Source: Bacteroidota bacterium (GTDB lineage Bacteria; Bacteroidota; Ignavibacteria; UBA10030). From it: a stretch of 64,000 bases of DNA. The stretch covers positions 589-64,588 of the forward strand of contig DATJYV010000029.1 of NCBI GenBank assembly GCA_035499415.1, written 5' to 3'. Every line of letters begins with the position of its first letter. Within the stretch, counting starts at the first letter, position 1. The notes beneath the pieces were generated by a model that saw nothing but the letters and a program-made list of their open reading frames with translations, did no database searches and was not told where the DNA came from. The position numbers and the translations under genes were made by a program. Shown here piece after piece: positions 23,535-30,934 of the stretch.

Positions 23535-23837
23535 CTATTTCGGAAAACCTGACGCCACCCACAATTTGACCAGCTTTTGATCCTCTTCTTTTTTCAAACG
23601 AGTGTTGAGCTTTAATCCGAGCCGCTTCACCGTGGAATAATCGGTGAACGGAAGTTTCCCAAACACCTTTCCCCCTTCAAAGTGACACGGTTGACACTTT
23701 TGGACGAGCAGGGGCGCGAGATCTTTCGAGAACGATTTCGTGTCTTGAGATCCCGCACCCGCGAAGGCCGCTGAGAGCGAGATTATCACAACTCCCATTC
23801 CCAACGCAAGCGTCGTGACTCGGTCCCCCTTCTTCAT
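23535..23837 (-). CDS. Small membrane-anchored protein with a single CxxCH (c-type haem-binding) motif
   Basis: 100 aa. N-terminal TM/signal anchor. QKCQPCHFEGGKVFGKLPF resembles the planctomycete-type monohaem cytochrome c domain. Its ATG overlaps the TGA of the dihydropyrimidinase (ATGA). Confidence 0.5.
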   Translation of the reverse strand: MKKGDRVTTLALGMGVVIISLSAAFAGAGSQDTKSFSKDLAPLLVQKCQPCHFEGGKVFGKLPFTDYSTVKRLGLKLNTRLKKEEDQKLVKLWVASGFPK

Positions 23838-25246
23838 CTCCCGATGAGATTGTATTGTCCGCGTTTGATATATCTTCCATAACCCGCCTTGCCCTTGAAT
23901 GCATCCCCCTCGAACACCGCTTTGCCCCGGGAAAGGACATACGACGGAGAACCGCTGACCGTCATCTGCTCGTACGGATTATAGTCGACTCGCATGAAGT
24001 GGGTCCTGGCCGTGATCGTGTACTTCCGCTTCGGATCCCACACGACGATGTCCGCATCGCTGCCGATGGCGATGGTTCCTTTCTTCGGGAACAGTCCCAT
24101 CAGTTTCGCCGGCGCGGTCGAAACGAGCTGGACAAACCGATTCATGCTCCAGCCGCGCTTTACCACTCCCCCCTCATAAAGCAGGTGAAGCCGGTTTTCG
24201 ACGCCGGGGAGTCCGTTGGGGATTTTGCTGAAATCGTCCTTTCCCAGTTCCTTCTGGCGCGGGAGCCCTTTATAACCCTCTTTCATACAGAAGGGACAGT
24301 GGTCGGTCGAAACCGCCTGGAGATCGTCGACGGCAAGTGCTTTCCATAAGAATTCCTGATTCGACCGCTCCCTGATGGGGGGCGAGCAGACGTACTTTGC
24401 GCCGTTGAAGCTGCCGTCGGCGTAGTCCTCGTACGCAAGGAAGAGATACTGCGGGCAGGTTTCGCCGTAGACCGGCAGGCCCCGGTCCCGGGCTTCGCGA
24501 ATCTGCTCCATCGCCAGATGCGAGGAAACGTGGACGATATAAACGGGCACGCCGGCCATTTCGCTGAGCGCGATCACGCGGTGAGTCGCCTCCTGTTCGG
24601 CCGTCGCCGGGCGCGAGAGCGCATGCACATTCGGCGTCGTCTTCCCTTCCGCCAGCATGCGTTTCACGAGCAGGTCGATCACCCCTCCATTCTCGGCATG
24701 CATGCAGATCAAGGCACCGTTCTCGGCCGTTCGCCTCATCGCTTTGTAGATCGTGGCGTCATCGACCATGAAGACGCCCGGATACGCGGTGAACAGCTTG
24801 AAGCTCGTCACCCCCTCCCTCTTGACCATCGTATCCATGTCGGGAAGCCAGTCGTCGGGCAATTCCGTCAGAATCAAATGCAGGCCATAATCGACCACCG
24901 CCCGTCCCTCGGACTTCCGGAGCCAGGTCTCGAACGCCTGGCGCATATTCGTCCCGCGCGATTGGACGGCAAAGTCGACGATACAGGTCGTGCCCCCGTG
25001 CGCCGCAGCAATGGTCCCCGTCTCGAAGTCGTCGGATGCCGCCGTCCCGCCGAACGGAAGCTCCATGTGCGTGTGGACGTCGATCCCTCCCGGGATCACA
25101 TAGCAGCCGGCCGCATCGATCGTGCGGTCCGCACGAATCTTCAGTCCCTTTCCAATCGTCGTGATCGTCTCATCTTCCACGTAAATATCGGCAACGTAAT
25201 CCTGTTCCGCCGTGATGATGCGACCGTTGGTTATGAGGGTTGACAT
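23834..25246 (-). CDS. hydA: Dihydropyrimidinase / D-hydantoinase
   Basis: 470 aa cyclic amidohydrolase. N-terminal ITNGRIIT...DAAGCYVIPGGIDVHTHMELPFGGT and the carboxylated-lysine region. Context with PreAT and beta-ureidopropionase. Confidence 0.85.
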   Translation of the reverse strand: MSTLITNGRIITAEQDYVADIYVEDETITTIGKGLKIRADRTIDAAGCYVIPGGIDVHTHMELPFGGTAASDDFETGTIAAAHGGTTCIVDFAVQSRGTNMRQAFETWLRKSEGRAVVDYGLHLILTELPDDWLPDMDTMVKREGVTSFKLFTAYPGVFMVDDATIYKAMRRTAENGALICMHAENGGVIDLLVKRMLAEGKTTPNVHALSRPATAEQEATHRVIALSEMAGVPVYIVHVSSHLAMEQIREARDRGLPVYGETCPQYLFLAYEDYADGSFNGAKYVCSPPIRERSNQEFLWKALAVDDLQAVSTDHCPFCMKEGYKGLPRQKELGKDDFSKIPNGLPGVENRLHLLYEGGVVKRGWSMNRFVQLVSTAPAKLMGLFPKKGTIAIGSDADIVVWDPKRKYTITARTHFMRVDYNPYEQMTVSGSPSYVLSRGKAVFEGDAFKGKAGYGRYIKRGQYNLIGR

Positions 25247-25306: not shown

Positions 25307-25732
25307 TTACGGCACCCCGACGGAAGATTCCCTGCGATAGATCAGGCTGATGGCCGCAGCAACGATAACATACCAGATGATCATGTAGACCGTGCTGACC
25401 GCGGCCAGCGACAGCTCATACCCCCGGATCATCAGATAGTTGAAGAAGTAGAAGGGGATGCCGGATATCAACCCCGCGTAGAGGCCAAAGAGCATTCCTC
25501 CGCGGACCCCCGGCTTGAAGTTCTGGACGACGCGGTCGTAGACCCACCCCAGAATGAGTGCTGCGAGAAAATCTCCGAGCGCAAACCAGGTGGGGGACTG
25601 GGACATCCGAAAAACGTCGGGGGCTTTTTCATAGTAGACTCGCTCCAGAAGATACCCCTGGACGATTCCGTCGAGCAGATTCCCGACGACTCCTCCCGCC
25701 AGGACGGCGATCCAGAACCTCGACTTCTTCAC
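25307..25732 (-). CDS. Small integral membrane protein, unknown function
   Basis: 141 aa, 4 predicted TM helices. Embedded in the pyrimidine operon between the dihydropyrimidinase and preA. Confidence 0.45.
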   Translation of the reverse strand: MKKSRFWIAVLAGGVVGNLLDGIVQGYLLERVYYEKAPDVFRMSQSPTWFALGDFLAALILGWVYDRVVQNFKPGVRGGMLFGLYAGLISGIPFYFFNYLMIRGYELSLAAVSTVYMIIWYVIVAAAISLIYRRESSVGVP

Positions 25733-25808: not shown

Positions 25809-27143
25809 TCAGTGAATCTCGATACCGTGTTTATGCTGGAACTGTCGCAACGCTTCCCATGTCAGCGGTTGCGGCAGCTGCCCCATCAACTGATTCCACG
25901 TCATCGACTCGTCTCCCCCGTCGAGCCGGACCATCGAAATACAACCGTCGACGGGGCAGACGATAAAACAGAGCCGACAGCCGACGCAGTCAGACTCGCG
26001 GACCTTCGGCTGTGAATAGCTCTCCGCCGTTCCGTCGACCCGTATTGTCCCTTTCTTGAGGTCGATGCACTGATGGGCGCTGTCTTCGCATGCGATATAG
26101 CACAGATTGCACTGAATGCATTTGGATTCATCGATGCGGGCCACCGCCTTGTAGAGCAGATTGAGATTTCCAAAGTCGGTAATGCAGGCCAGTGATTTTC
26201 CGCGGACCTCCTCCAGCGTGCGATAACCCTTCCCTTCCATCCAGTTCGTCAAACCCTCTACCATGTCGTTCACAATGCGAAAACCGTAGTGCATGACGGC
26301 GGTACATACCTGAACGCTCGTGGCGCCCAGAAGGATGAATTCGGCGGCATCACGCCACGTCGAGATCCCGCCCATTCCCGAAACGGGAAGTCCAATCTCA
26401 GGGTCGATTGCGATTTGCGAAAGCATGTTCAGGGCAATCGGCTTCACCGCCGGACCCGCGTACCCTCCGTGCCCGCCTTTGCCGTCAATCGACGGCTTCA
26501 GCTCCAGCGTGTCCAGGTCGACGCCCATAATCGTGTTGATGGTATTGATAAGAGAAATGCCGCTCGCCTTTCCTTTTTTCGCAGCTCTTCCGGGATAGCG
26601 AATGTCCGTCACGTTCGGCGTGAGCTTCACGAGGACAGGGATGGTGGATACTTCGGTGACCCACTCCGTGATCATCGCACAGTATTCGGGGACTTGTCCC
26701 ACGGCCGACCCCATCCCGCGTTCGCTCATTCCGTGGGGACATCCGTAGTTCAACTCGATCCCATCGCATCCGGTGTCGATTGTCCGCTTCACCATATCGT
26801 GCCAGGTCTCGCGTTTGGATTCCACCATGAGCGACGCCACAACCGCGCGATCGGGCCAGAGTTTCTTCGTCTCCGCGATCTCGCGGAGATTCGTCTCGAT
26901 GGGCCGGTCGCTGATCAACTCAATGTTGTTGAGGCCGAGAATCTTCTGTCCGTTGTAATCCACGGCACCGTACCGGTTGACAACGTTCATGACCGGCTCG
27001 CCGATGGTTTTCCACACCGCGCCGCCCCACCCCGCCTCGAACGCCTTGCACACCTGGTACGAGGAATTTGTCGGCGGAGCCGAAGCCAGCCAGAAGGGAT
27101 TCGGAGACTTGATGCCGCCGCAATTAATTGAAAGGTCGGCCAT
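25809..27143 (-). CDS. preA: NAD-dependent dihydropyrimidine dehydrogenase subunit PreA (DHOD-like FMN domain plus 2x[4Fe-4S])
   Basis: 444 aa. TIM-barrel dihydroorotate-dehydrogenase-like core. C-terminal ferredoxin motifs CIQCNLCYIACED and CVGCRLCFIVCPV. Confidence 0.85.
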   Translation of the reverse strand: MADLSINCGGIKSPNPFWLASAPPTNSSYQVCKAFEAGWGGAVWKTIGEPVMNVVNRYGAVDYNGQKILGLNNIELISDRPIETNLREIAETKKLWPDRAVVASLMVESKRETWHDMVKRTIDTGCDGIELNYGCPHGMSERGMGSAVGQVPEYCAMITEWVTEVSTIPVLVKLTPNVTDIRYPGRAAKKGKASGISLINTINTIMGVDLDTLELKPSIDGKGGHGGYAGPAVKPIALNMLSQIAIDPEIGLPVSGMGGISTWRDAAEFILLGATSVQVCTAVMHYGFRIVNDMVEGLTNWMEGKGYRTLEEVRGKSLACITDFGNLNLLYKAVARIDESKCIQCNLCYIACEDSAHQCIDLKKGTIRVDGTAESYSQPKVRESDCVGCRLCFIVCPVDGCISMVRLDGGDESMTWNQLMGQLPQPLTWEALRQFQHKHGIEIH

Positions 27144-27159: not shown

Positions 27160-27204
27160 GATTGAGGTTAAGGTTGAGGTTGAGGTTGAGGTTGAGGTTG
27201 AGGG
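27160..27204. repeat. Hexanucleotide microsatellite (GGTTGA/GGTTAA)x7 in the preT-preA intergenic spacer
   Basis: Direct reading: attgag gttaag gttgag gttgag gttgag gttgag gttgag ggc. It lies 20-60 nt upstream of the preA ATG. Confidence 0.85.
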
Positions 27205-27205
27205 C

Positions 27206-28561
27206 TCACGCGATTGATTTTTTCGAGAGATATTTGTCAATCCCATGCGCCGCACGCTTGCCGTCGTAGGCCGCGTTCACAACTTCCTTCCCGCCGTTGA
27301 TACAATCTCCGCCCGCGAAAACTTTCGCGTTCGTCGTCTGGTATGTCTCCGGGTCGACCGCAACTTTTCCGTTCTTCATCTTCACGCCGGGGATCTTCAG
27401 CACCAACTCCTTCGCAATTTCCTGGCCGATCGAGACGATCACCATATCCACCGGAATGGTGAACGTGGACCCGGGGATTTTTCTCAGCGTTTGACGACCT
27501 CCGGTGCGCGAGGTTTGCGCGACGACCCGTTCACATTCAATCCCCTTCACGTGTTTCTTCCCGACGATCCTTTTGGGAATGACGTTGAAGAAAAAGCGGA
27601 CTCCGTCGGTCTTGGCGAGGGCGTATTCAAAATCGTACGCAGACATGTCCTTTTCGGAACGCCGGTAGATGATGGACACGTCGTTCGCCCCCAGGCGTTT
27701 CGCCTCCGTCGCCGCGTCAATCGCGGTGTTTCCCGCCCCGATCACCGCAACGCGCGTGCCGACATCGACGGACTTCCAGCTCCGGGTCGTGACGCGTTGG
27801 ATGAACTCGAGGGCCTCATAAACGCCTTCAGTCGCTTCGCCGCGGATCCCCAGCCGCACCGCCCTGGGGAGACCCGTCCCGATGAACATGGCATCGTGCC
27901 GCTGCAGGAGTTCGTCCACGGTCATGTCTTTGCCGATTGTTACGCCCGTGCGAATGGAAACGCCCAGCTTTTCGACGAGGCCGACTTCCTTCATGCTGTC
28001 CGCCTGGCGCATCTTGTATGGAGCTATTCCCCACGTATCGAGTCCGCCCGGCTTTTTCTTGCCTTCGTAGACGACCGCCTCGTATCCCATGAGCGAAAGC
28101 TCGGCTGCGCACGCAAGTCCCGCCGGCCCGGCGCCGATGATGCCCACAGACTTTCCGTTTCTGGGCAAAGGATGGAACAGCGGGGGCGCCCCCGCTTCGA
28201 AGTACCGGTCCATCGCAAAGCGCTGCAACCGGCCGATTTGAATCGGTTCTTCTCCCCGCTCGTTGTAGACGCACGCTCCTTCGCACAGAACATCCACGGG
28301 GCACGCCTTCGCACACGTGAGCGCGACCCAGTTCGAGCTTAAGATCGTCTTCGCCGACCCTTGCAGATTCCCCGACGCAATCTTTTTGATGAACGTCGGA
28401 ATATCGATGTGGGTGGGGCAGGCCTTCGTGCAGGGAGAGTCGAAACAATAGAGACAGCGATTCGCATCGGCAACGGCAGCGTTCGCGGTAAAGGGGGGAT
28501 GGAGCTCGGCGAAGTTCTGCTCGTACTGCGAAGGAGGGAGTTTTGGGGCAACGTTCTTCAG
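27206..28561 (-). CDS. preT: NAD-dependent dihydropyrimidine dehydrogenase subunit PreT (glutamate-synthase small-subunit-like; FAD/NAD plus 2x[4Fe-4S])
   Basis: The track ORF starts at a GTG (28297). The same frame upstream encodes the conserved PreT N-terminus (AELHPPFTANAAVADANRCLYCFDSPCTKACPTHIDIPTFIKKIA...) without any ATG/GTG/TTG. The only candidate is a CTG at about 28561. The frame is contiguous with the aminotransferase gene, separated by a single TAA. Confidence 0.7.
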   Translation of the reverse strand: MKNVAPKLPPSQYEQNFAELHPPFTANAAVADANRCLYCFDSPCTKACPTHIDIPTFIKKIASGNLQGSAKTILSSNWVALTCAKACPVDVLCEGACVYNERGEEPIQIGRLQRFAMDRYFEAGAPPLFHPLPRNGKSVGIIGAGPAGLACAAELSLMGYEAVVYEGKKKPGGLDTWGIAPYKMRQADSMKEVGLVEKLGVSIRTGVTIGKDMTVDELLQRHDAMFIGTGLPRAVRLGIRGEATEGVYEALEFIQRVTTRSWKSVDVGTRVAVIGAGNTAIDAATEAKRLGANDVSIIYRRSEKDMSAYDFEYALAKTDGVRFFFNVIPKRIVGKKHVKGIECERVVAQTSRTGGRQTLRKIPGSTFTIPVDMVIVSIGQEIAKELVLKIPGVKMKNGKVAVDPETYQTTNAKVFAGGDCINGGKEVVNAAYDGKRAAHGIDKYLSKKSIA

Positions 28562-28579
28562 AAAAGACTCCGCGGGTTG

Positions 28580-29929
28580 TTAGACTGCCTCGGCATCCGC
28601 CAACGCGAGCGCTTCATCCATCACCCGGACCCCTTCGTCGATCTCCTTTTCTGTAACGATCAACGGAGGTGCAACCACGAAGTGACTCACCCACGCCTGG
28701 ATGAAGACGCCGTTCTGCATCATACGTCCCGCAATTTTCTCGACCATCGCGGGGACTCCGCTCACTTTATCCCTGAACGAATTGAAATACGTTTTCTTTT
28801 TCCGGTCCTTCACCAATTCCACACCCCAGAACAGGCCGAGCCCGCGGACCTCGCCGATGCATTTGTGCCGATCCTGGAGAGCGCGAAGTTTCTTCCCGAG
28901 GTACGCTCCCATGGTCTCGGCGCGTTCGATAAGGTTCAGTCTTCGATATTCGTTGATCGCCGCGATCGCCGGCGCCAGGGTCAGCGGATGGGCCTCATAG
29001 GTGTGGCCGTGCGCAAAGAAGTGGTCGTCAAAGTGGGACGCGACTTTCATCGTCGTGGCACACAGGCCGAGGGGAACATACGCCGTCGTGATCCCCTTTG
29101 CCGTGACGAGGATGTCCGGCCGTACGCCCCAATGGTCGACCGCAAACCACTTCCCCGTCCTCCCCCAACCGCTCATCACCTCGTCCGCAATCAGCAGGAC
29201 GTTGTTCCGGTCGCAGATCTCACGGAGCCGCGGCATGTACTCTTTCGGCGGAATGAGCACGCCGTTCGTACCGACGACGGGTTCGACGATCACCGCCGCA
29301 ACGTCGCTCTCGTTTTCGATCATGTGCTCCAGGTAATCAGCACAGGCGATGTCGCAAGCGGGATACTCATGGTTGATTGGACAGTCGTAGCAGTTGACCT
29401 CCGGCCCGAAGATGACCCCCTGGACTTTGCTTGCGGGTTCCGCCGCCCACCGGCGGGGGTCTCCCGTCGCGGCGATCGACCCCATCGTTGAACCGTGATA
29501 CGACCGGTAGCGCGCGATGATCTTCGTCTTGCCCGTCACCATCCGGGCGATCTTGAATGCGGCCTCGTTCGCCTCGGTTCCCGAGGTCGTAAAGAAGAAC
29601 TTCTCCAACCCCTTGGGGAGCACCTCGAGCAACATCTTGCTCAATTCGGCCCGGACATCCGTCGCATAGCCGGGGGCGATGTACGGGAGTTTCCGCGCCT
29701 GCTCCTCGATCGCACGGATGACCGCCTGATTCTTGTGTCCCAGCTGGACGCACATGAGCTGAGACGAGAAATCAAGATACTTCTTCCCCGCCGCATCCGT
29801 GAAATAGCAACCTTCCGCGTCGACGACGTGAAGCGGTTTCCATCCCTTCTGGAACCGCCACGTGCCGTACGTATTCCGGGCGGTAATATCGGTGATTTCC
29901 TGTGAGGTGAGTGAAGACGCCATGGTCAA
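28580..29929 (-). CDS. Class-III (omega) aminotransferase, probable beta-alanine/3-aminoisobutyrate:pyruvate or 2-oxoglutarate transaminase
   Basis: 449 aa, PLP fold-type I. Conserved class-III aminotransferase segments with a PLP-lysine region. Operon context. Confidence 0.8.
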   Translation of the reverse strand: MTMASSLTSQEITDITARNTYGTWRFQKGWKPLHVVDAEGCYFTDAAGKKYLDFSSQLMCVQLGHKNQAVIRAIEEQARKLPYIAPGYATDVRAELSKMLLEVLPKGLEKFFFTTSGTEANEAAFKIARMVTGKTKIIARYRSYHGSTMGSIAATGDPRRWAAEPASKVQGVIFGPEVNCYDCPINHEYPACDIACADYLEHMIENESDVAAVIVEPVVGTNGVLIPPKEYMPRLREICDRNNVLLIADEVMSGWGRTGKWFAVDHWGVRPDILVTAKGITTAYVPLGLCATTMKVASHFDDHFFAHGHTYEAHPLTLAPAIAAINEYRRLNLIERAETMGAYLGKKLRALQDRHKCIGEVRGLGLFWGVELVKDRKKKTYFNSFRDKVSGVPAMVEKIAGRMMQNGVFIQAWVSHFVVAPPLIVTEKEIDEGVRVMDEALALADAEAV

Positions 29930-30058: not shown

Positions 30059-30934
30059 CTAACCATACGCTTCCACCAGTTCCTTGTACGATTCAGGCCT
30101 ACGGTCGCGGAAGAACTGCCACACCTGCCGCACTTCCTGAATCATATCCATCGAAAGGTCGGCAACGACAAGCTCATCTTTATCCCGGCTGGCCTGGGCG
30201 ATAATCTTTCCCCGCGGATTACAGAAATAGCTCTTCCCATAGAACTCGCCGATGTTCCAGGGAGGTTCCGTCCCGACGCGATTGATCGCCCCGACAAAGT
30301 AGCCGTTGGCAACCGCGTGGGCCGGTTGTTCCAGTTCCCACAGATACTCCGAAAGCCCTGCCACGGTGGCCGAAGGGTTAAACACGATCTCCGCACCGTG
30401 CAGGCCCAGCACGCGCGCCCCCTCGGGAAAGTGCCGGTCATAGCAAATGTAGACACCGATGTCGGCATACTTCGTCTTGAAAACGGGATAGCCGGTGTTC
30501 CCCGGCTTGAAGTAGAATTTCTCCCAGAACCCCGGGTCGACCTGCGGTATATGATGCTTCCGGTATTTTCCGAGATAGGATCCGTCTGCGTCGATCACGG
30601 CGGCAGAATTATAGTACACGCCCGTCATCTCTTCTTCATACACGGGAGCGATGATCACCATTCCATATTTTTTCGCGTACGACTGGATGAGTTTGATGGT
30701 CGGACCGTCCGGAACTCGCTCGACCATCGCGTACCACTTCGTTTTCTGTTCGGCACAGAAGTACGGGCCGTAGAACAACTCCTGCATGCATAATATTTGA
30801 ACGCCCTTCCCTCCGGCCTGCTCGATGAGATGGACATGCTTGTCCACCATGGCCTTTTTGATCTTCTCGATGGGTTGTTCCGTCGACTCGGCGAGCTTGC
30901 ACTGAATCAGTCCGCCCCTCACAATACGAGACAT
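30059..30934 (-). CDS. Beta-ureidopropionase / N-carbamoyl-beta-alanine amidohydrolase (nitrilase superfamily)
   Basis: 291 aa CN-hydrolase with the Glu-Lys-Cys triad context (GVYICYDRHFPE). GGAGG RBS 5 nt before the ATG. Confidence 0.8.
   Translation of the reverse strand: MSRIVRGGLIQCKLAESTEQPIEKIKKAMVDKHVHLIEQAGGKGVQILCMQELFYGPYFCAEQKTKWYAMVERVPDGPTIKLIQSYAKKYGMVIIAPVYEEEMTGVYYNSAAVIDADGSYLGKYRKHHIPQVDPGFWEKFYFKPGNTGYPVFKTKYADIGVYICYDRHFPEGARVLGLHGAEIVFNPSATVAGLSEYLWELEQPAHAVANGYFVGAINRVGTEPPWNIGEFYGKSYFCNPRGKIIAQASRDKDELVVADLSMDMIQEVRQVWQFFRDRRPESYKELVEAYG

Follow-up and report, generated by a model that had tools for sequence, protein, structure and literature searches.

Where does translation of a gene begin when its conserved amino-terminal domain is encoded upstream of every canonical start codon in its frame? 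The question is raised by a preT-like gene in the 64,000-nt stretch of DNA analyzed here (the window), whose frame is open on the minus strand from the TAA stop codon of an aminotransferase gene to a TGA at 27208-27206 (Table 1). Across about 95 codons, from the TAA (28582) to the first GTG (28297), there is no ATG, GTG or TTG. The initial annotation had accordingly described preT as lacking a canonical start codon and as sharing one frame with the aminotransferase across a single TAA. The latter statement stands, there being no second in-frame stop; the former holds for ATG, GTG and TTG, but the CTG that lies within the stretch is itself a recognized, if rare, start codon of translation table 11.

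Table 1. Features of the preT locus, in window coordinates
Feature	Position	Strand	Basis
preA, large subunit, downstream partner of preT	25809..27143	-	NCBIfam NF006183 equivalog for 25812-27143, 654 bits (cut-off 335)
preT-like CDS, 451 codons and TGA	27206..28561	-	Pfam matches, PDB homologues, orthologue lengths
GTG, first in-frame GTG, ATG or TTG of preT	28297..28299	-	Read from the sequence
CTG, proposed initiation codon of preT, decoded as fMet	28559..28561	-	Orthologue alignment, contigs, NCBI record
18-nt spacer from the aminotransferase stop to the CTG	28562..28579	-	Invariant in 8/8 contigs
GGAG, Shine-Dalgarno-like, with a 6-nt T-rich spacer (TCTTTT) before the CTG	28568..28571	-	Read from the sequence
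TAA, aminotransferase stop, in frame with preT	28580..28582	-	Read from the sequence
Class-III aminotransferase CDS, 447 aa	28580..29923	-	Pfam Aminotran_3, E = 4.6e-95; identical to NCBI HTP79073.1

The start-less stretch encodes a conserved Fe-S domain

The start-less stretch of preT is coding, because the Pfam domain Fer4_20 (DPD domain II, 4Fe-4S) matches there, at residues 21-129 of the stop-to-stop translation (E = 2.9e-35), together with amino-terminal cysteines that are at least 90% conserved across 33 orthologues. Over its first 130 residues the product shows 72-92% amino-acid identity to its orthologues, and the full-length homologues among the best 120 protein matches are 442-466 aa long. 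Homologues of known structure, including 4ylf_B and 1h7x_A (PDB 1H7X, pig DPD), align from residue 9-13 onward. The GTG at 28299-28297 is located past C42, C45, C50, C54, C89 and C93 (stop-to-stop numbering). A protein initiated at this GTG would thus be truncated and devoid of most of its Fe-S ligands, which in dihydropyrimidine dehydrogenase relay electrons; both the position of the Fe-S amino-terminus between the TAA and the GTG and the loss of the ligands from a GTG-initiated protein had been correctly anticipated in the initial annotation.

The CTG at 28561-28559 is codon 7 past the TAA and the sole near-cognate codon before the first cysteine motif. Other near-cognates (ATC, ATT) first appear at codon 58, beyond the CxxCxxxxCxxxC motif, and ATT, ATC and ATA were rejected as candidate starts, none of them occurring before that codon. 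Throughout the window, preT is the sole gene with a conserved domain 5' of its first ATG, GTG or TTG; a general habit of odd starts was likewise discarded, since the other start-less 5' stretches in the window carry no domain before the first canonical start.

The product would be the small, PreT-like subunit of an NAD-dependent dihydropyrimidine dehydrogenase, to judge from its domains and neighbors. Fer4_20 is followed by Pyr_redox_2 (Pfam E = 1.1e-29), and several orthologues carry the JGI label ‘subunit PreT’. NCBI names the protein of the window only ‘NAD(P)-dependent oxidoreductase’, and no PreT-specific NCBIfam model scored above its cut-off, the best matches being GltD/GltA-type models, all below theirs. 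The surrounding genes are a reductive pyrimidine-catabolism operon with the order beta-ureidopropionase-like amidase, aminotransferase, preT, preA, a 141-aa protein and dihydropyrimidinase.

The CTG occupies the start position of orthologous genes

Orthologues with 66-72% identity begin with M-[KND]-N-x-A-P-K-L, to which the L-K-N-V-A-P-K-L of the window aligns exactly, and the CTG aligns with Met1 of all 33 orthologous proteins. At the level of DNA, the codon in the aligned position across 80 species-level orthologous loci is ATG in 68, GTG in three and TTG in two; in the remaining seven the start seemingly lies 1-2 codons off (one of these, L044, being ambiguous), and CTG is found at the aligned start position in 0/80. 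The comparison of orthologous starts that the initial annotation had proposed therefore puts the CTG at the orthologous Met1, a position held by ATG, GTG or TTG in 73/80 loci. An upstream start in another frame combined with an indel was also considered and is unneeded, since the first codon of the orthologues aligns precisely with the CTG. Neither a protein search nor a genome scan turned up intermediates of 75-95% identity, and the set of relatives has a gap between 72% and 99%.

Public records differ in their treatment of the gene. NCBI HTP79072.1 (451 aa) matches the product of initiation at the CTG exactly and, along with the orthologous Met1 position, lends strong support to CTG initiation, one of the options raised earlier. 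Automated callers in four pipelines, including ENA, JGI and Logan, give a 335-aa product from an internal ATG (MDRYFE), because such callers take ATG, GTG or TTG only.

The CTG is reproduced across strains

An identical TAACAACCCGCGGAGTCTTTTCTG junction (TAA-18 nt-CTG) is present in seven further contigs of the same species (L001-L006 and L087) from seven different samples (ENA ERZ27256514, ERZ27256612, ERZ27256617 and ERZ27256511; JGI Ga0335079 and Ga0335077; Logan SRR8881010), such that, with the window included, CTG is read in 8/8 contigs from 8 samples. Synonymous SNPs flank the junction among these contigs, which therefore represent separate strains and not one assembly deposited repeatedly. 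When JGI metagenome contigs were scanned with the first codon base left free, CTG alone was recovered. The CTG at this position is thus real and fixed in the species.

Strain polymorphism was compared in seven sequences, namely the window and six spanning contigs. The start-less stretch contains four variable codons, all synonymous, and the rest of preT contains 16, of which five are non-synonymous; the synonymous share over the whole gene is hence 15/20. No stop or frameshift was seen in the preT frame of any of the seven.

Sequence context and the junction with the aminotransferase

The GGAG upstream of the CTG is suggestive rather than decisive as a putative ribosome-binding site of preT: GGAG at a spacing of 5-9 nt precedes 3.2% of the CTG triplets in the window, which is the chance level, and other genes of the window have clear GGAGG-type Shine-Dalgarno sequences. 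The motif may matter little in this lineage, since a Shine-Dalgarno-like 4-mer occurs at only 16/79 orthologue preT starts. The junction is predicted to form no stable RNA structure (fold of 28500-28640 against shuffled sequences, z = +1.24), and scanning the window against Rfam at gathering thresholds yielded zero matches.

The aminotransferase terminates with …ADAEAV*, where its orthologues end (…ADAEV..*). TAA terminates 8/40 long ORFs of the window, and reassignment of this codon was rejected on both these grounds. In 52 orthologous loci, the gap between the aminotransferase and preT ranges from -4 to +227 nt; the two genes share a frame in 24 and are out of frame in 28. Five orthologous loci display an ATGA or TTGA overlap (-4) of the two genes, on account of which the pair is probably translationally coupled in those relatives. 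An overlap or a short stop-start distance, from -8 to +10 nt, is predictive of coupling, and at gaps of +11 to +20 nt, the range that includes the +18 nt of preT, the efficiency of termination-reinitiation is gene-specific and often low (PMC10666635). Help for the preT CTG from coupling or reinitiation is possible. A search of the literature for cases in which re-initiating bacterial ribosomes specifically use near-cognate starts gave general reviews only.

Probable initiation at the CTG and its alternatives

We consider it probable, with considerable confidence, that translation begins at the CTG and yields a normal 451-aa PreT from an intact, functional gene, a reading based on comparative sequence evidence. 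The start codon of preT would have mutated to the near-cognate CTG in this species, presumably when one base of an ATG or TTG was substituted; both GTG and TTG starts are present among the orthologues. Initiator fMet-tRNA would be placed at the CTG to give a protein starting MKNVAPKL…, whose amino-terminal peptide would be (f)MKNVAPKLPPSQYEQNFAELHPPFTANAAVADANR or what remains of it once Met is removed. CUG initiation in E. coli reaches 1-2% of that of AUG, and CTG is rarely annotated as a bacterial start (bioRxiv 10.1101/063800). The GGAG, 6 nt before the weak codon, may assist it, and so may ribosomes that finish the aminotransferase at its TAA 18 nt upstream, either by re-initiating locally or by unfolding the mRNA. 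As CUG is very weak in E. coli and PreT pairs 1:1 with PreA, the output of PreT could be limiting.

The alternatives can be weighed against this proposal. That the window stems from a metagenome-assembled genome, and that one base change would bring back ATG, GTG or TTG, might suggest that the first base of the codon was missequenced or misassembled, an option that the initial annotation had listed; the same CTG in seven contigs from seven other samples, differing at nearby synonymous sites, and the base-agnostic scan that recovered CTG only, refute it and leave it a negligible probability. Translation from an internal canonical codon, be it the GTG at 28297 or the ATG of MDRYFE, would produce a shortened PreT that lacks the Fe-S domain, and agrees with the 335-aa output of the callers in the four pipelines. 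However, it would leave outside the protein a 95-codon stretch that encodes Fer4_20 with all its cysteine ligands conserved, varies only synonymously among strains and belongs to the first 130 residues with 72-92% identity to orthologues, while the short product would miss most of the Fe-S ligands; we find this reading extremely improbable. Programmed read-through of the TAA, also envisaged earlier, would make an aminotransferase-PreT fusion the principal source of PreT, or a regulated one. The single in-frame TAA is compatible with it, as is a shared frame in 24/52 loci, somewhat above one third. Nevertheless, neither frame nor gap is conserved, no fusion architecture appears among the best 120 matches, RNA folding predicts no structure at the junction, and the TAA lies at the orthologous carboxy-terminus of the aminotransferase and is an ordinary stop in the window. 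TAA is, moreover, the least leaky bacterial stop, and we hold read-through to be very unlikely.

More subtle is the prospect that preT is decaying or down-tuned, i.e. that it is largely silenced, as an incipient pseudogene or one with trace expression, the intact frame reflecting how recent the event is. The low efficiency of CUG in the E. coli reporters (bioRxiv 10.1101/063800) favors this, as does the occurrence of CTG in none of the 80 orthologous species, which suggests that it is usually selected against. On the other hand, the CTG is fixed in 8 contigs from 8 samples that have diverged by some 20 variable preT codons, there is no stop or frameshift in the seven spanning sequences, and the remaining pathway operon is intact; the predominance of synonymous changes (15/20 overall, 4/4 in the amino-terminal stretch) points the same way, though with such small SNP counts it is only moderately strong. 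We therefore judge decay to be unlikely. Somewhat less probable still is that the CTG, instead of being a tolerated defect, is a selected device tying PreT synthesis strictly to ribosomes that finish the aminotransferase, perhaps with a minor read-through fusion, as the two frames coincide. Were this true, the near-cognate start would serve almost exclusively ribosomes that re-initiate 18 nt beyond the stop at which they terminated, and PreT output would be linked to the translation of the last enzyme of the pathway.

Comparison with known systems

As proposed, initiation at the preT CTG belongs to a known, if uncommon, class of bacterial starts and reveals no new mechanism. It has in common with the rare CTG/CUG starts of other bacteria a single near-cognate codon at the orthologous Met1, annotation through homology, the presumed decoding as fMet and, perhaps, a ribosome-binding site. 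It differs from them in lying 18 nt past a co-directional stop codon and in belonging to an uncultured Ignavibacteria-type lineage. Another parallel is offered by infC of E. coli, which encodes IF3 and is a functional gene with a weak start, the near-cognate AUU, that serves autoregulation. Like infC, preT has seemingly been kept functional with a weak non-canonical start codon; however, the AUU of infC is conserved across many species and follows a demonstrated regulatory logic, IF3 discriminating against non-canonical starts, whereas the CTG of preT occurs in one species only (0/80 orthologues) and shows no evident regulatory logic. With respect to coupling by ATGA overlaps, five related species have such overlaps (ATGA or TTGA), and the pair in the window has only 18 nt between stop and start on one mRNA. 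In contrast to the classical arrangement, the genes of the window do not overlap, their +18 nt spacing is one at which coupling varies and is often weak (PMC10666635), and coupling here is putative.

The closest functional counterpart is the PreT-PreA pair of E. coli, with which the window shares the combination of Fer4_20 and the flavin/NAD-binding Pyr_redox_2 as well as a PreA equivalog directly downstream. The operon of the window also has dihydropyrimidinase and a carbamoyl-amidase. Unlike its E. coli counterpart, this preT sits inside a full reductive pyrimidine-degradation operon with an aminotransferase; the protein itself is distant from E. coli PreT, passing no PreT-specific NCBIfam cut-off.

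Implications

The main value of the preT CTG is practical and concerns gene calling: the truncated 335-aa calls in the ENA, JGI and Logan-derived collections have lost the Fe-S domain, and the homology-guided call of NCBI recovered the full 451 aa. Beyond this, preT offers a clean instance from nature of a near-cognate CTG that has become fixed in a wild population, and its product must pair 1:1 with a partner subunit. The gene could hence serve as a test case for how far the weakness of such a start is tolerated, or is offset by the nearby upstream stop codon and Shine-Dalgarno-like motif.

A protein-coding 5' region of preT that lacks ATG, GTG and TTG

On the minus strand the class-III aminotransferase gene ends in TAA 28582-28580, beyond which its frame stays open as far as TGA 27208-27206, the stop of the gene for the PreT-like subunit of NAD-dependent dihydropyrimidine dehydrogenase. 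A codon-by-codon listing shows that the initial annotation was accurate in describing one frame common to both genes across a single TAA: the 94 codons between this TAA and GTG 28299-28297 include no ATG, GTG or TTG. The CTG at the seventh codon past the TAA (28561-28559) is, as claimed, the only near-cognate triplet, at least ahead of the first cysteine motif. The statement that preT lacks any canonical start stands for ATG, GTG and TTG, though CTG is itself listed, as a rare initiator, in translation table 11. Judged by homology, this start-less stretch clearly codes for protein: in the stop-to-stop translation, residues 21-129 match Pfam Fer4_20, the 4Fe-4S domain II of dihydropyrimidine dehydrogenase (E = 2.9e-35), and Pyr_redox_2 comes after it. 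Alignments with the structural homologues 4ylf_B, NfnI 5jca_L and pig DPD 1h7x_A begin at residue 9-13 of the CTG-initiated product.

The CTG occupies the orthologous initiation position

A protein-collection search with PreT recovered thousands of relatives, the best 120 of which measure 442-466 aa, save one truncated 335-aa entry. All 33 relatives that we aligned (66-72% identity) start with M-[KND]-N-x-A-P-K-L, which the L-K-N-V-A-P-K-L of the window matches residue for residue, and conservation of the cysteines in the two Fe-S motifs reaches 90% or more among them. The comparison of orthologous starts that the initial annotation had proposed was made at the DNA level across 80 species-level preT loci, every one of them from a MAG of Ignavibacteria/Bacteroidota type. 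Opposite the window CTG stands ATG in 68, GTG in three and TTG in two (73/80), while the apparent start lies 1-2 codons away in seven; none of the 80 has CTG there. The alignment therefore places the CTG at the orthologous initiation position. Since the family varies among ATG, GTG and TTG at this point, one base substitution, from ATG or TTG, would suffice to give the window start.

In one of those seven loci (L044, near position 2498; DASQAZ010000170.1, Bacteroidota MAG SMAG_U11658) ATA (SINLAAKL) stands at the preT start position, where its close relative L038 has ATG (PMNLAEKL), and an in-frame ATG lies 51 nt upstream of the codon preceding the ATA. This gene has either a second near-cognate start in the family or an N-terminal extension of ~18 residues.

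Weighing the routes to a PreT product

A sequencing error at the CTG, one of the options initially offered, is excluded by independent assemblies. The 99%-identical PreT protein cluster has five members, whose contigs were retrieved along with one more found by pattern scan; the comparison covers seven contigs, each from a different sample (ENA ERZ27256514, ERZ27256612, ERZ27256617 and ERZ27256511; JGI Ga0335079 and Ga0335077; Logan SRR8881010). The junction TAACAACCCGCGGAGTCTTTTCTG is identical in all seven, even as they differ synonymously from the window and from each other close to it, and a metagenome scan permitting any base at the first start-codon position recovered C alone. Read-through of the aminotransferase TAA to yield an aminotransferase-PreT fusion draws on the single frame, open across one stop, but is unsupported by the comparative data. 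The aminotransferase lies immediately upstream of preT in 52 of the 80 loci, at stop-to-start distances of -4 nt to +227 nt, and only 24 of these 52 pairs keep a common frame; chance, at one in three, is the simplest account of the shared frame. Moreover, the best 120 PreT matches include no homologue of fusion length, the TAA sits at the orthologous C-terminus and also ends 8 of the 40 long ORFs in the window, and RNA structure at the junction does not exceed that of shuffled controls (z = +1.24).

Initiation at the CTG, the first option proposed, is the explanation best supported by these sequences, given its place at the orthologous Met1 and its recurrence in all seven contigs. The initiator tRNA can read CUG, albeit weakly: E. 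coli reporters put this start at ~1-2% of AUG, and annotations seldom give CTG as a bacterial start (bioRxiv 10.1101/063800). The yield could be raised by a GGAG (28571-28568, minus strand) 6 nt upstream, a placement with a chance rate of 3.2% before CTG triplets in the window; other window genes have clear GGAGG-type SDs. Against a role for the GGAG, just 16 of the 79 preT starts in orthologues carry an SD-like motif. The nearness of the aminotransferase stop, 18 nt upstream, could likewise help via coupling. An ATGA or TTGA overlap with a GGAGGT shortly upstream is the textbook layout of translationally coupled genes. Five related species (L014, L023, L037, L059 and L079, around locus position 2500) show such -4 nt overlaps of aminotransferase stop and preT start, with GGAGGT within the aminotransferase C-terminus codons (…AEV) a few bases upstream, which suggests that the pair is coupled in the lineage. 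The 18-nt gap of the window, however, falls within the +11 to +20 nt range in which the efficiency of re-initiation depends on the gene and is frequently much lower (PMC10666635; review PMC12548453); coupling is a possible contributor here. That the weak CTG is a selected device tying PreT synthesis to re-initiating ribosomes strikes us as very improbable.

The pyrimidine-degradation operon

By gene content and order, preT lies within a complete reductive pyrimidine-degradation operon.

Features of the operon and of other stretches discussed
Feature	Position	Strand	Match
CN-hydrolase (carbamoyl-amidase type)	30059-30934	minus	family matches
Aminotransferase	28580-29923	minus	family matches
PreT-like protein	27206-28561	minus	family matches
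(CCTCAA)x7 repeat	27162-27203	minus	
PreA	25809-27143	minus	NF006183, 654 bits (cut-off 335)
141-aa protein	25307-25732	minus	no family match
Dihydropyrimidinase	23834-25246	minus	TIGR02033, 588 bits (cut-off 393)
Stop-free stretch	990-2177	plus	no Pfam match

The hydrophobic 141-aa ORF between preA and the dihydropyrimidinase gene, also called in strain contigs L002 and L006, has no NCBIfam match, and the precomputed Pfam record of the called genes is empty; it could represent a membrane component of the operon that has yet to be characterised. For the aminotransferase, the mechanical ORF list starts at a TTG that precedes the ATG by two codons (28580-29929, 449 aa), while NCBI HTP79073.1 begins at the ATG itself, at 29923 (447 aa).

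No tandem repeat in the window is stronger than this hexamer, which is G-poor and stands between the preT stop and the ATG of preA, shortly ahead of a preA start that has no SD. Its copy number varies among same-species strains: the preT-preA gap measures 62 nt in L004 as in the window but 50 nt in L001, L003 and L006, and in L002 the gene calls put it at 44 nt. Comparable G-poor hexamer runs, GAACCY/CAACCY, are found ahead of preT in many of the orthologous loci (e.g. L012, L029, L035, L040, L051, L067 and L080). The repeat might act as an unstructured leader or enhance translation, might bind Rho or a protein, or might be mere slippage-prone DNA. Elsewhere, the 396 stop-free codons at 990-2177, with the first ATG/GTG/TTG at codon 279, are probably non-coding or a shadow frame.

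Annotation and strain variation of full-length PreT

The CTG start is already captured in NCBI HTP79072.1 ('MAG TPA: NAD(P)-dependent oxidoreductase [Bacteroidota bacterium]', 451 aa, on a 66,300-nt contig), which is identical to the CTG-initiated product with Met at position 1, and it is of a rare but known kind. HTP79073.1 is the aminotransferase upstream. Only this NCBI record carries the 451-aa protein: the ENA, JGI and Logan calls (contigs L001-L006; proteins P0004 and P0122-P0124 of the searched collection) are all 335 aa from an internal ATG (MDRYFE…), because the callers take ATG, GTG or TTG and not CTG. The 335-aa form is an annotation artefact in which the whole Fe-S domain is lost. 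Across the window and the six gene-spanning contigs, preT has no stops or frameshifts; all four variable codons of the start-less stretch are synonymous, and five of the 16 in the rest of the gene are non-synonymous. Small as these numbers are, the variation does fit ongoing purifying selection on full-length PreT, including its N-terminal Fe-S domain.
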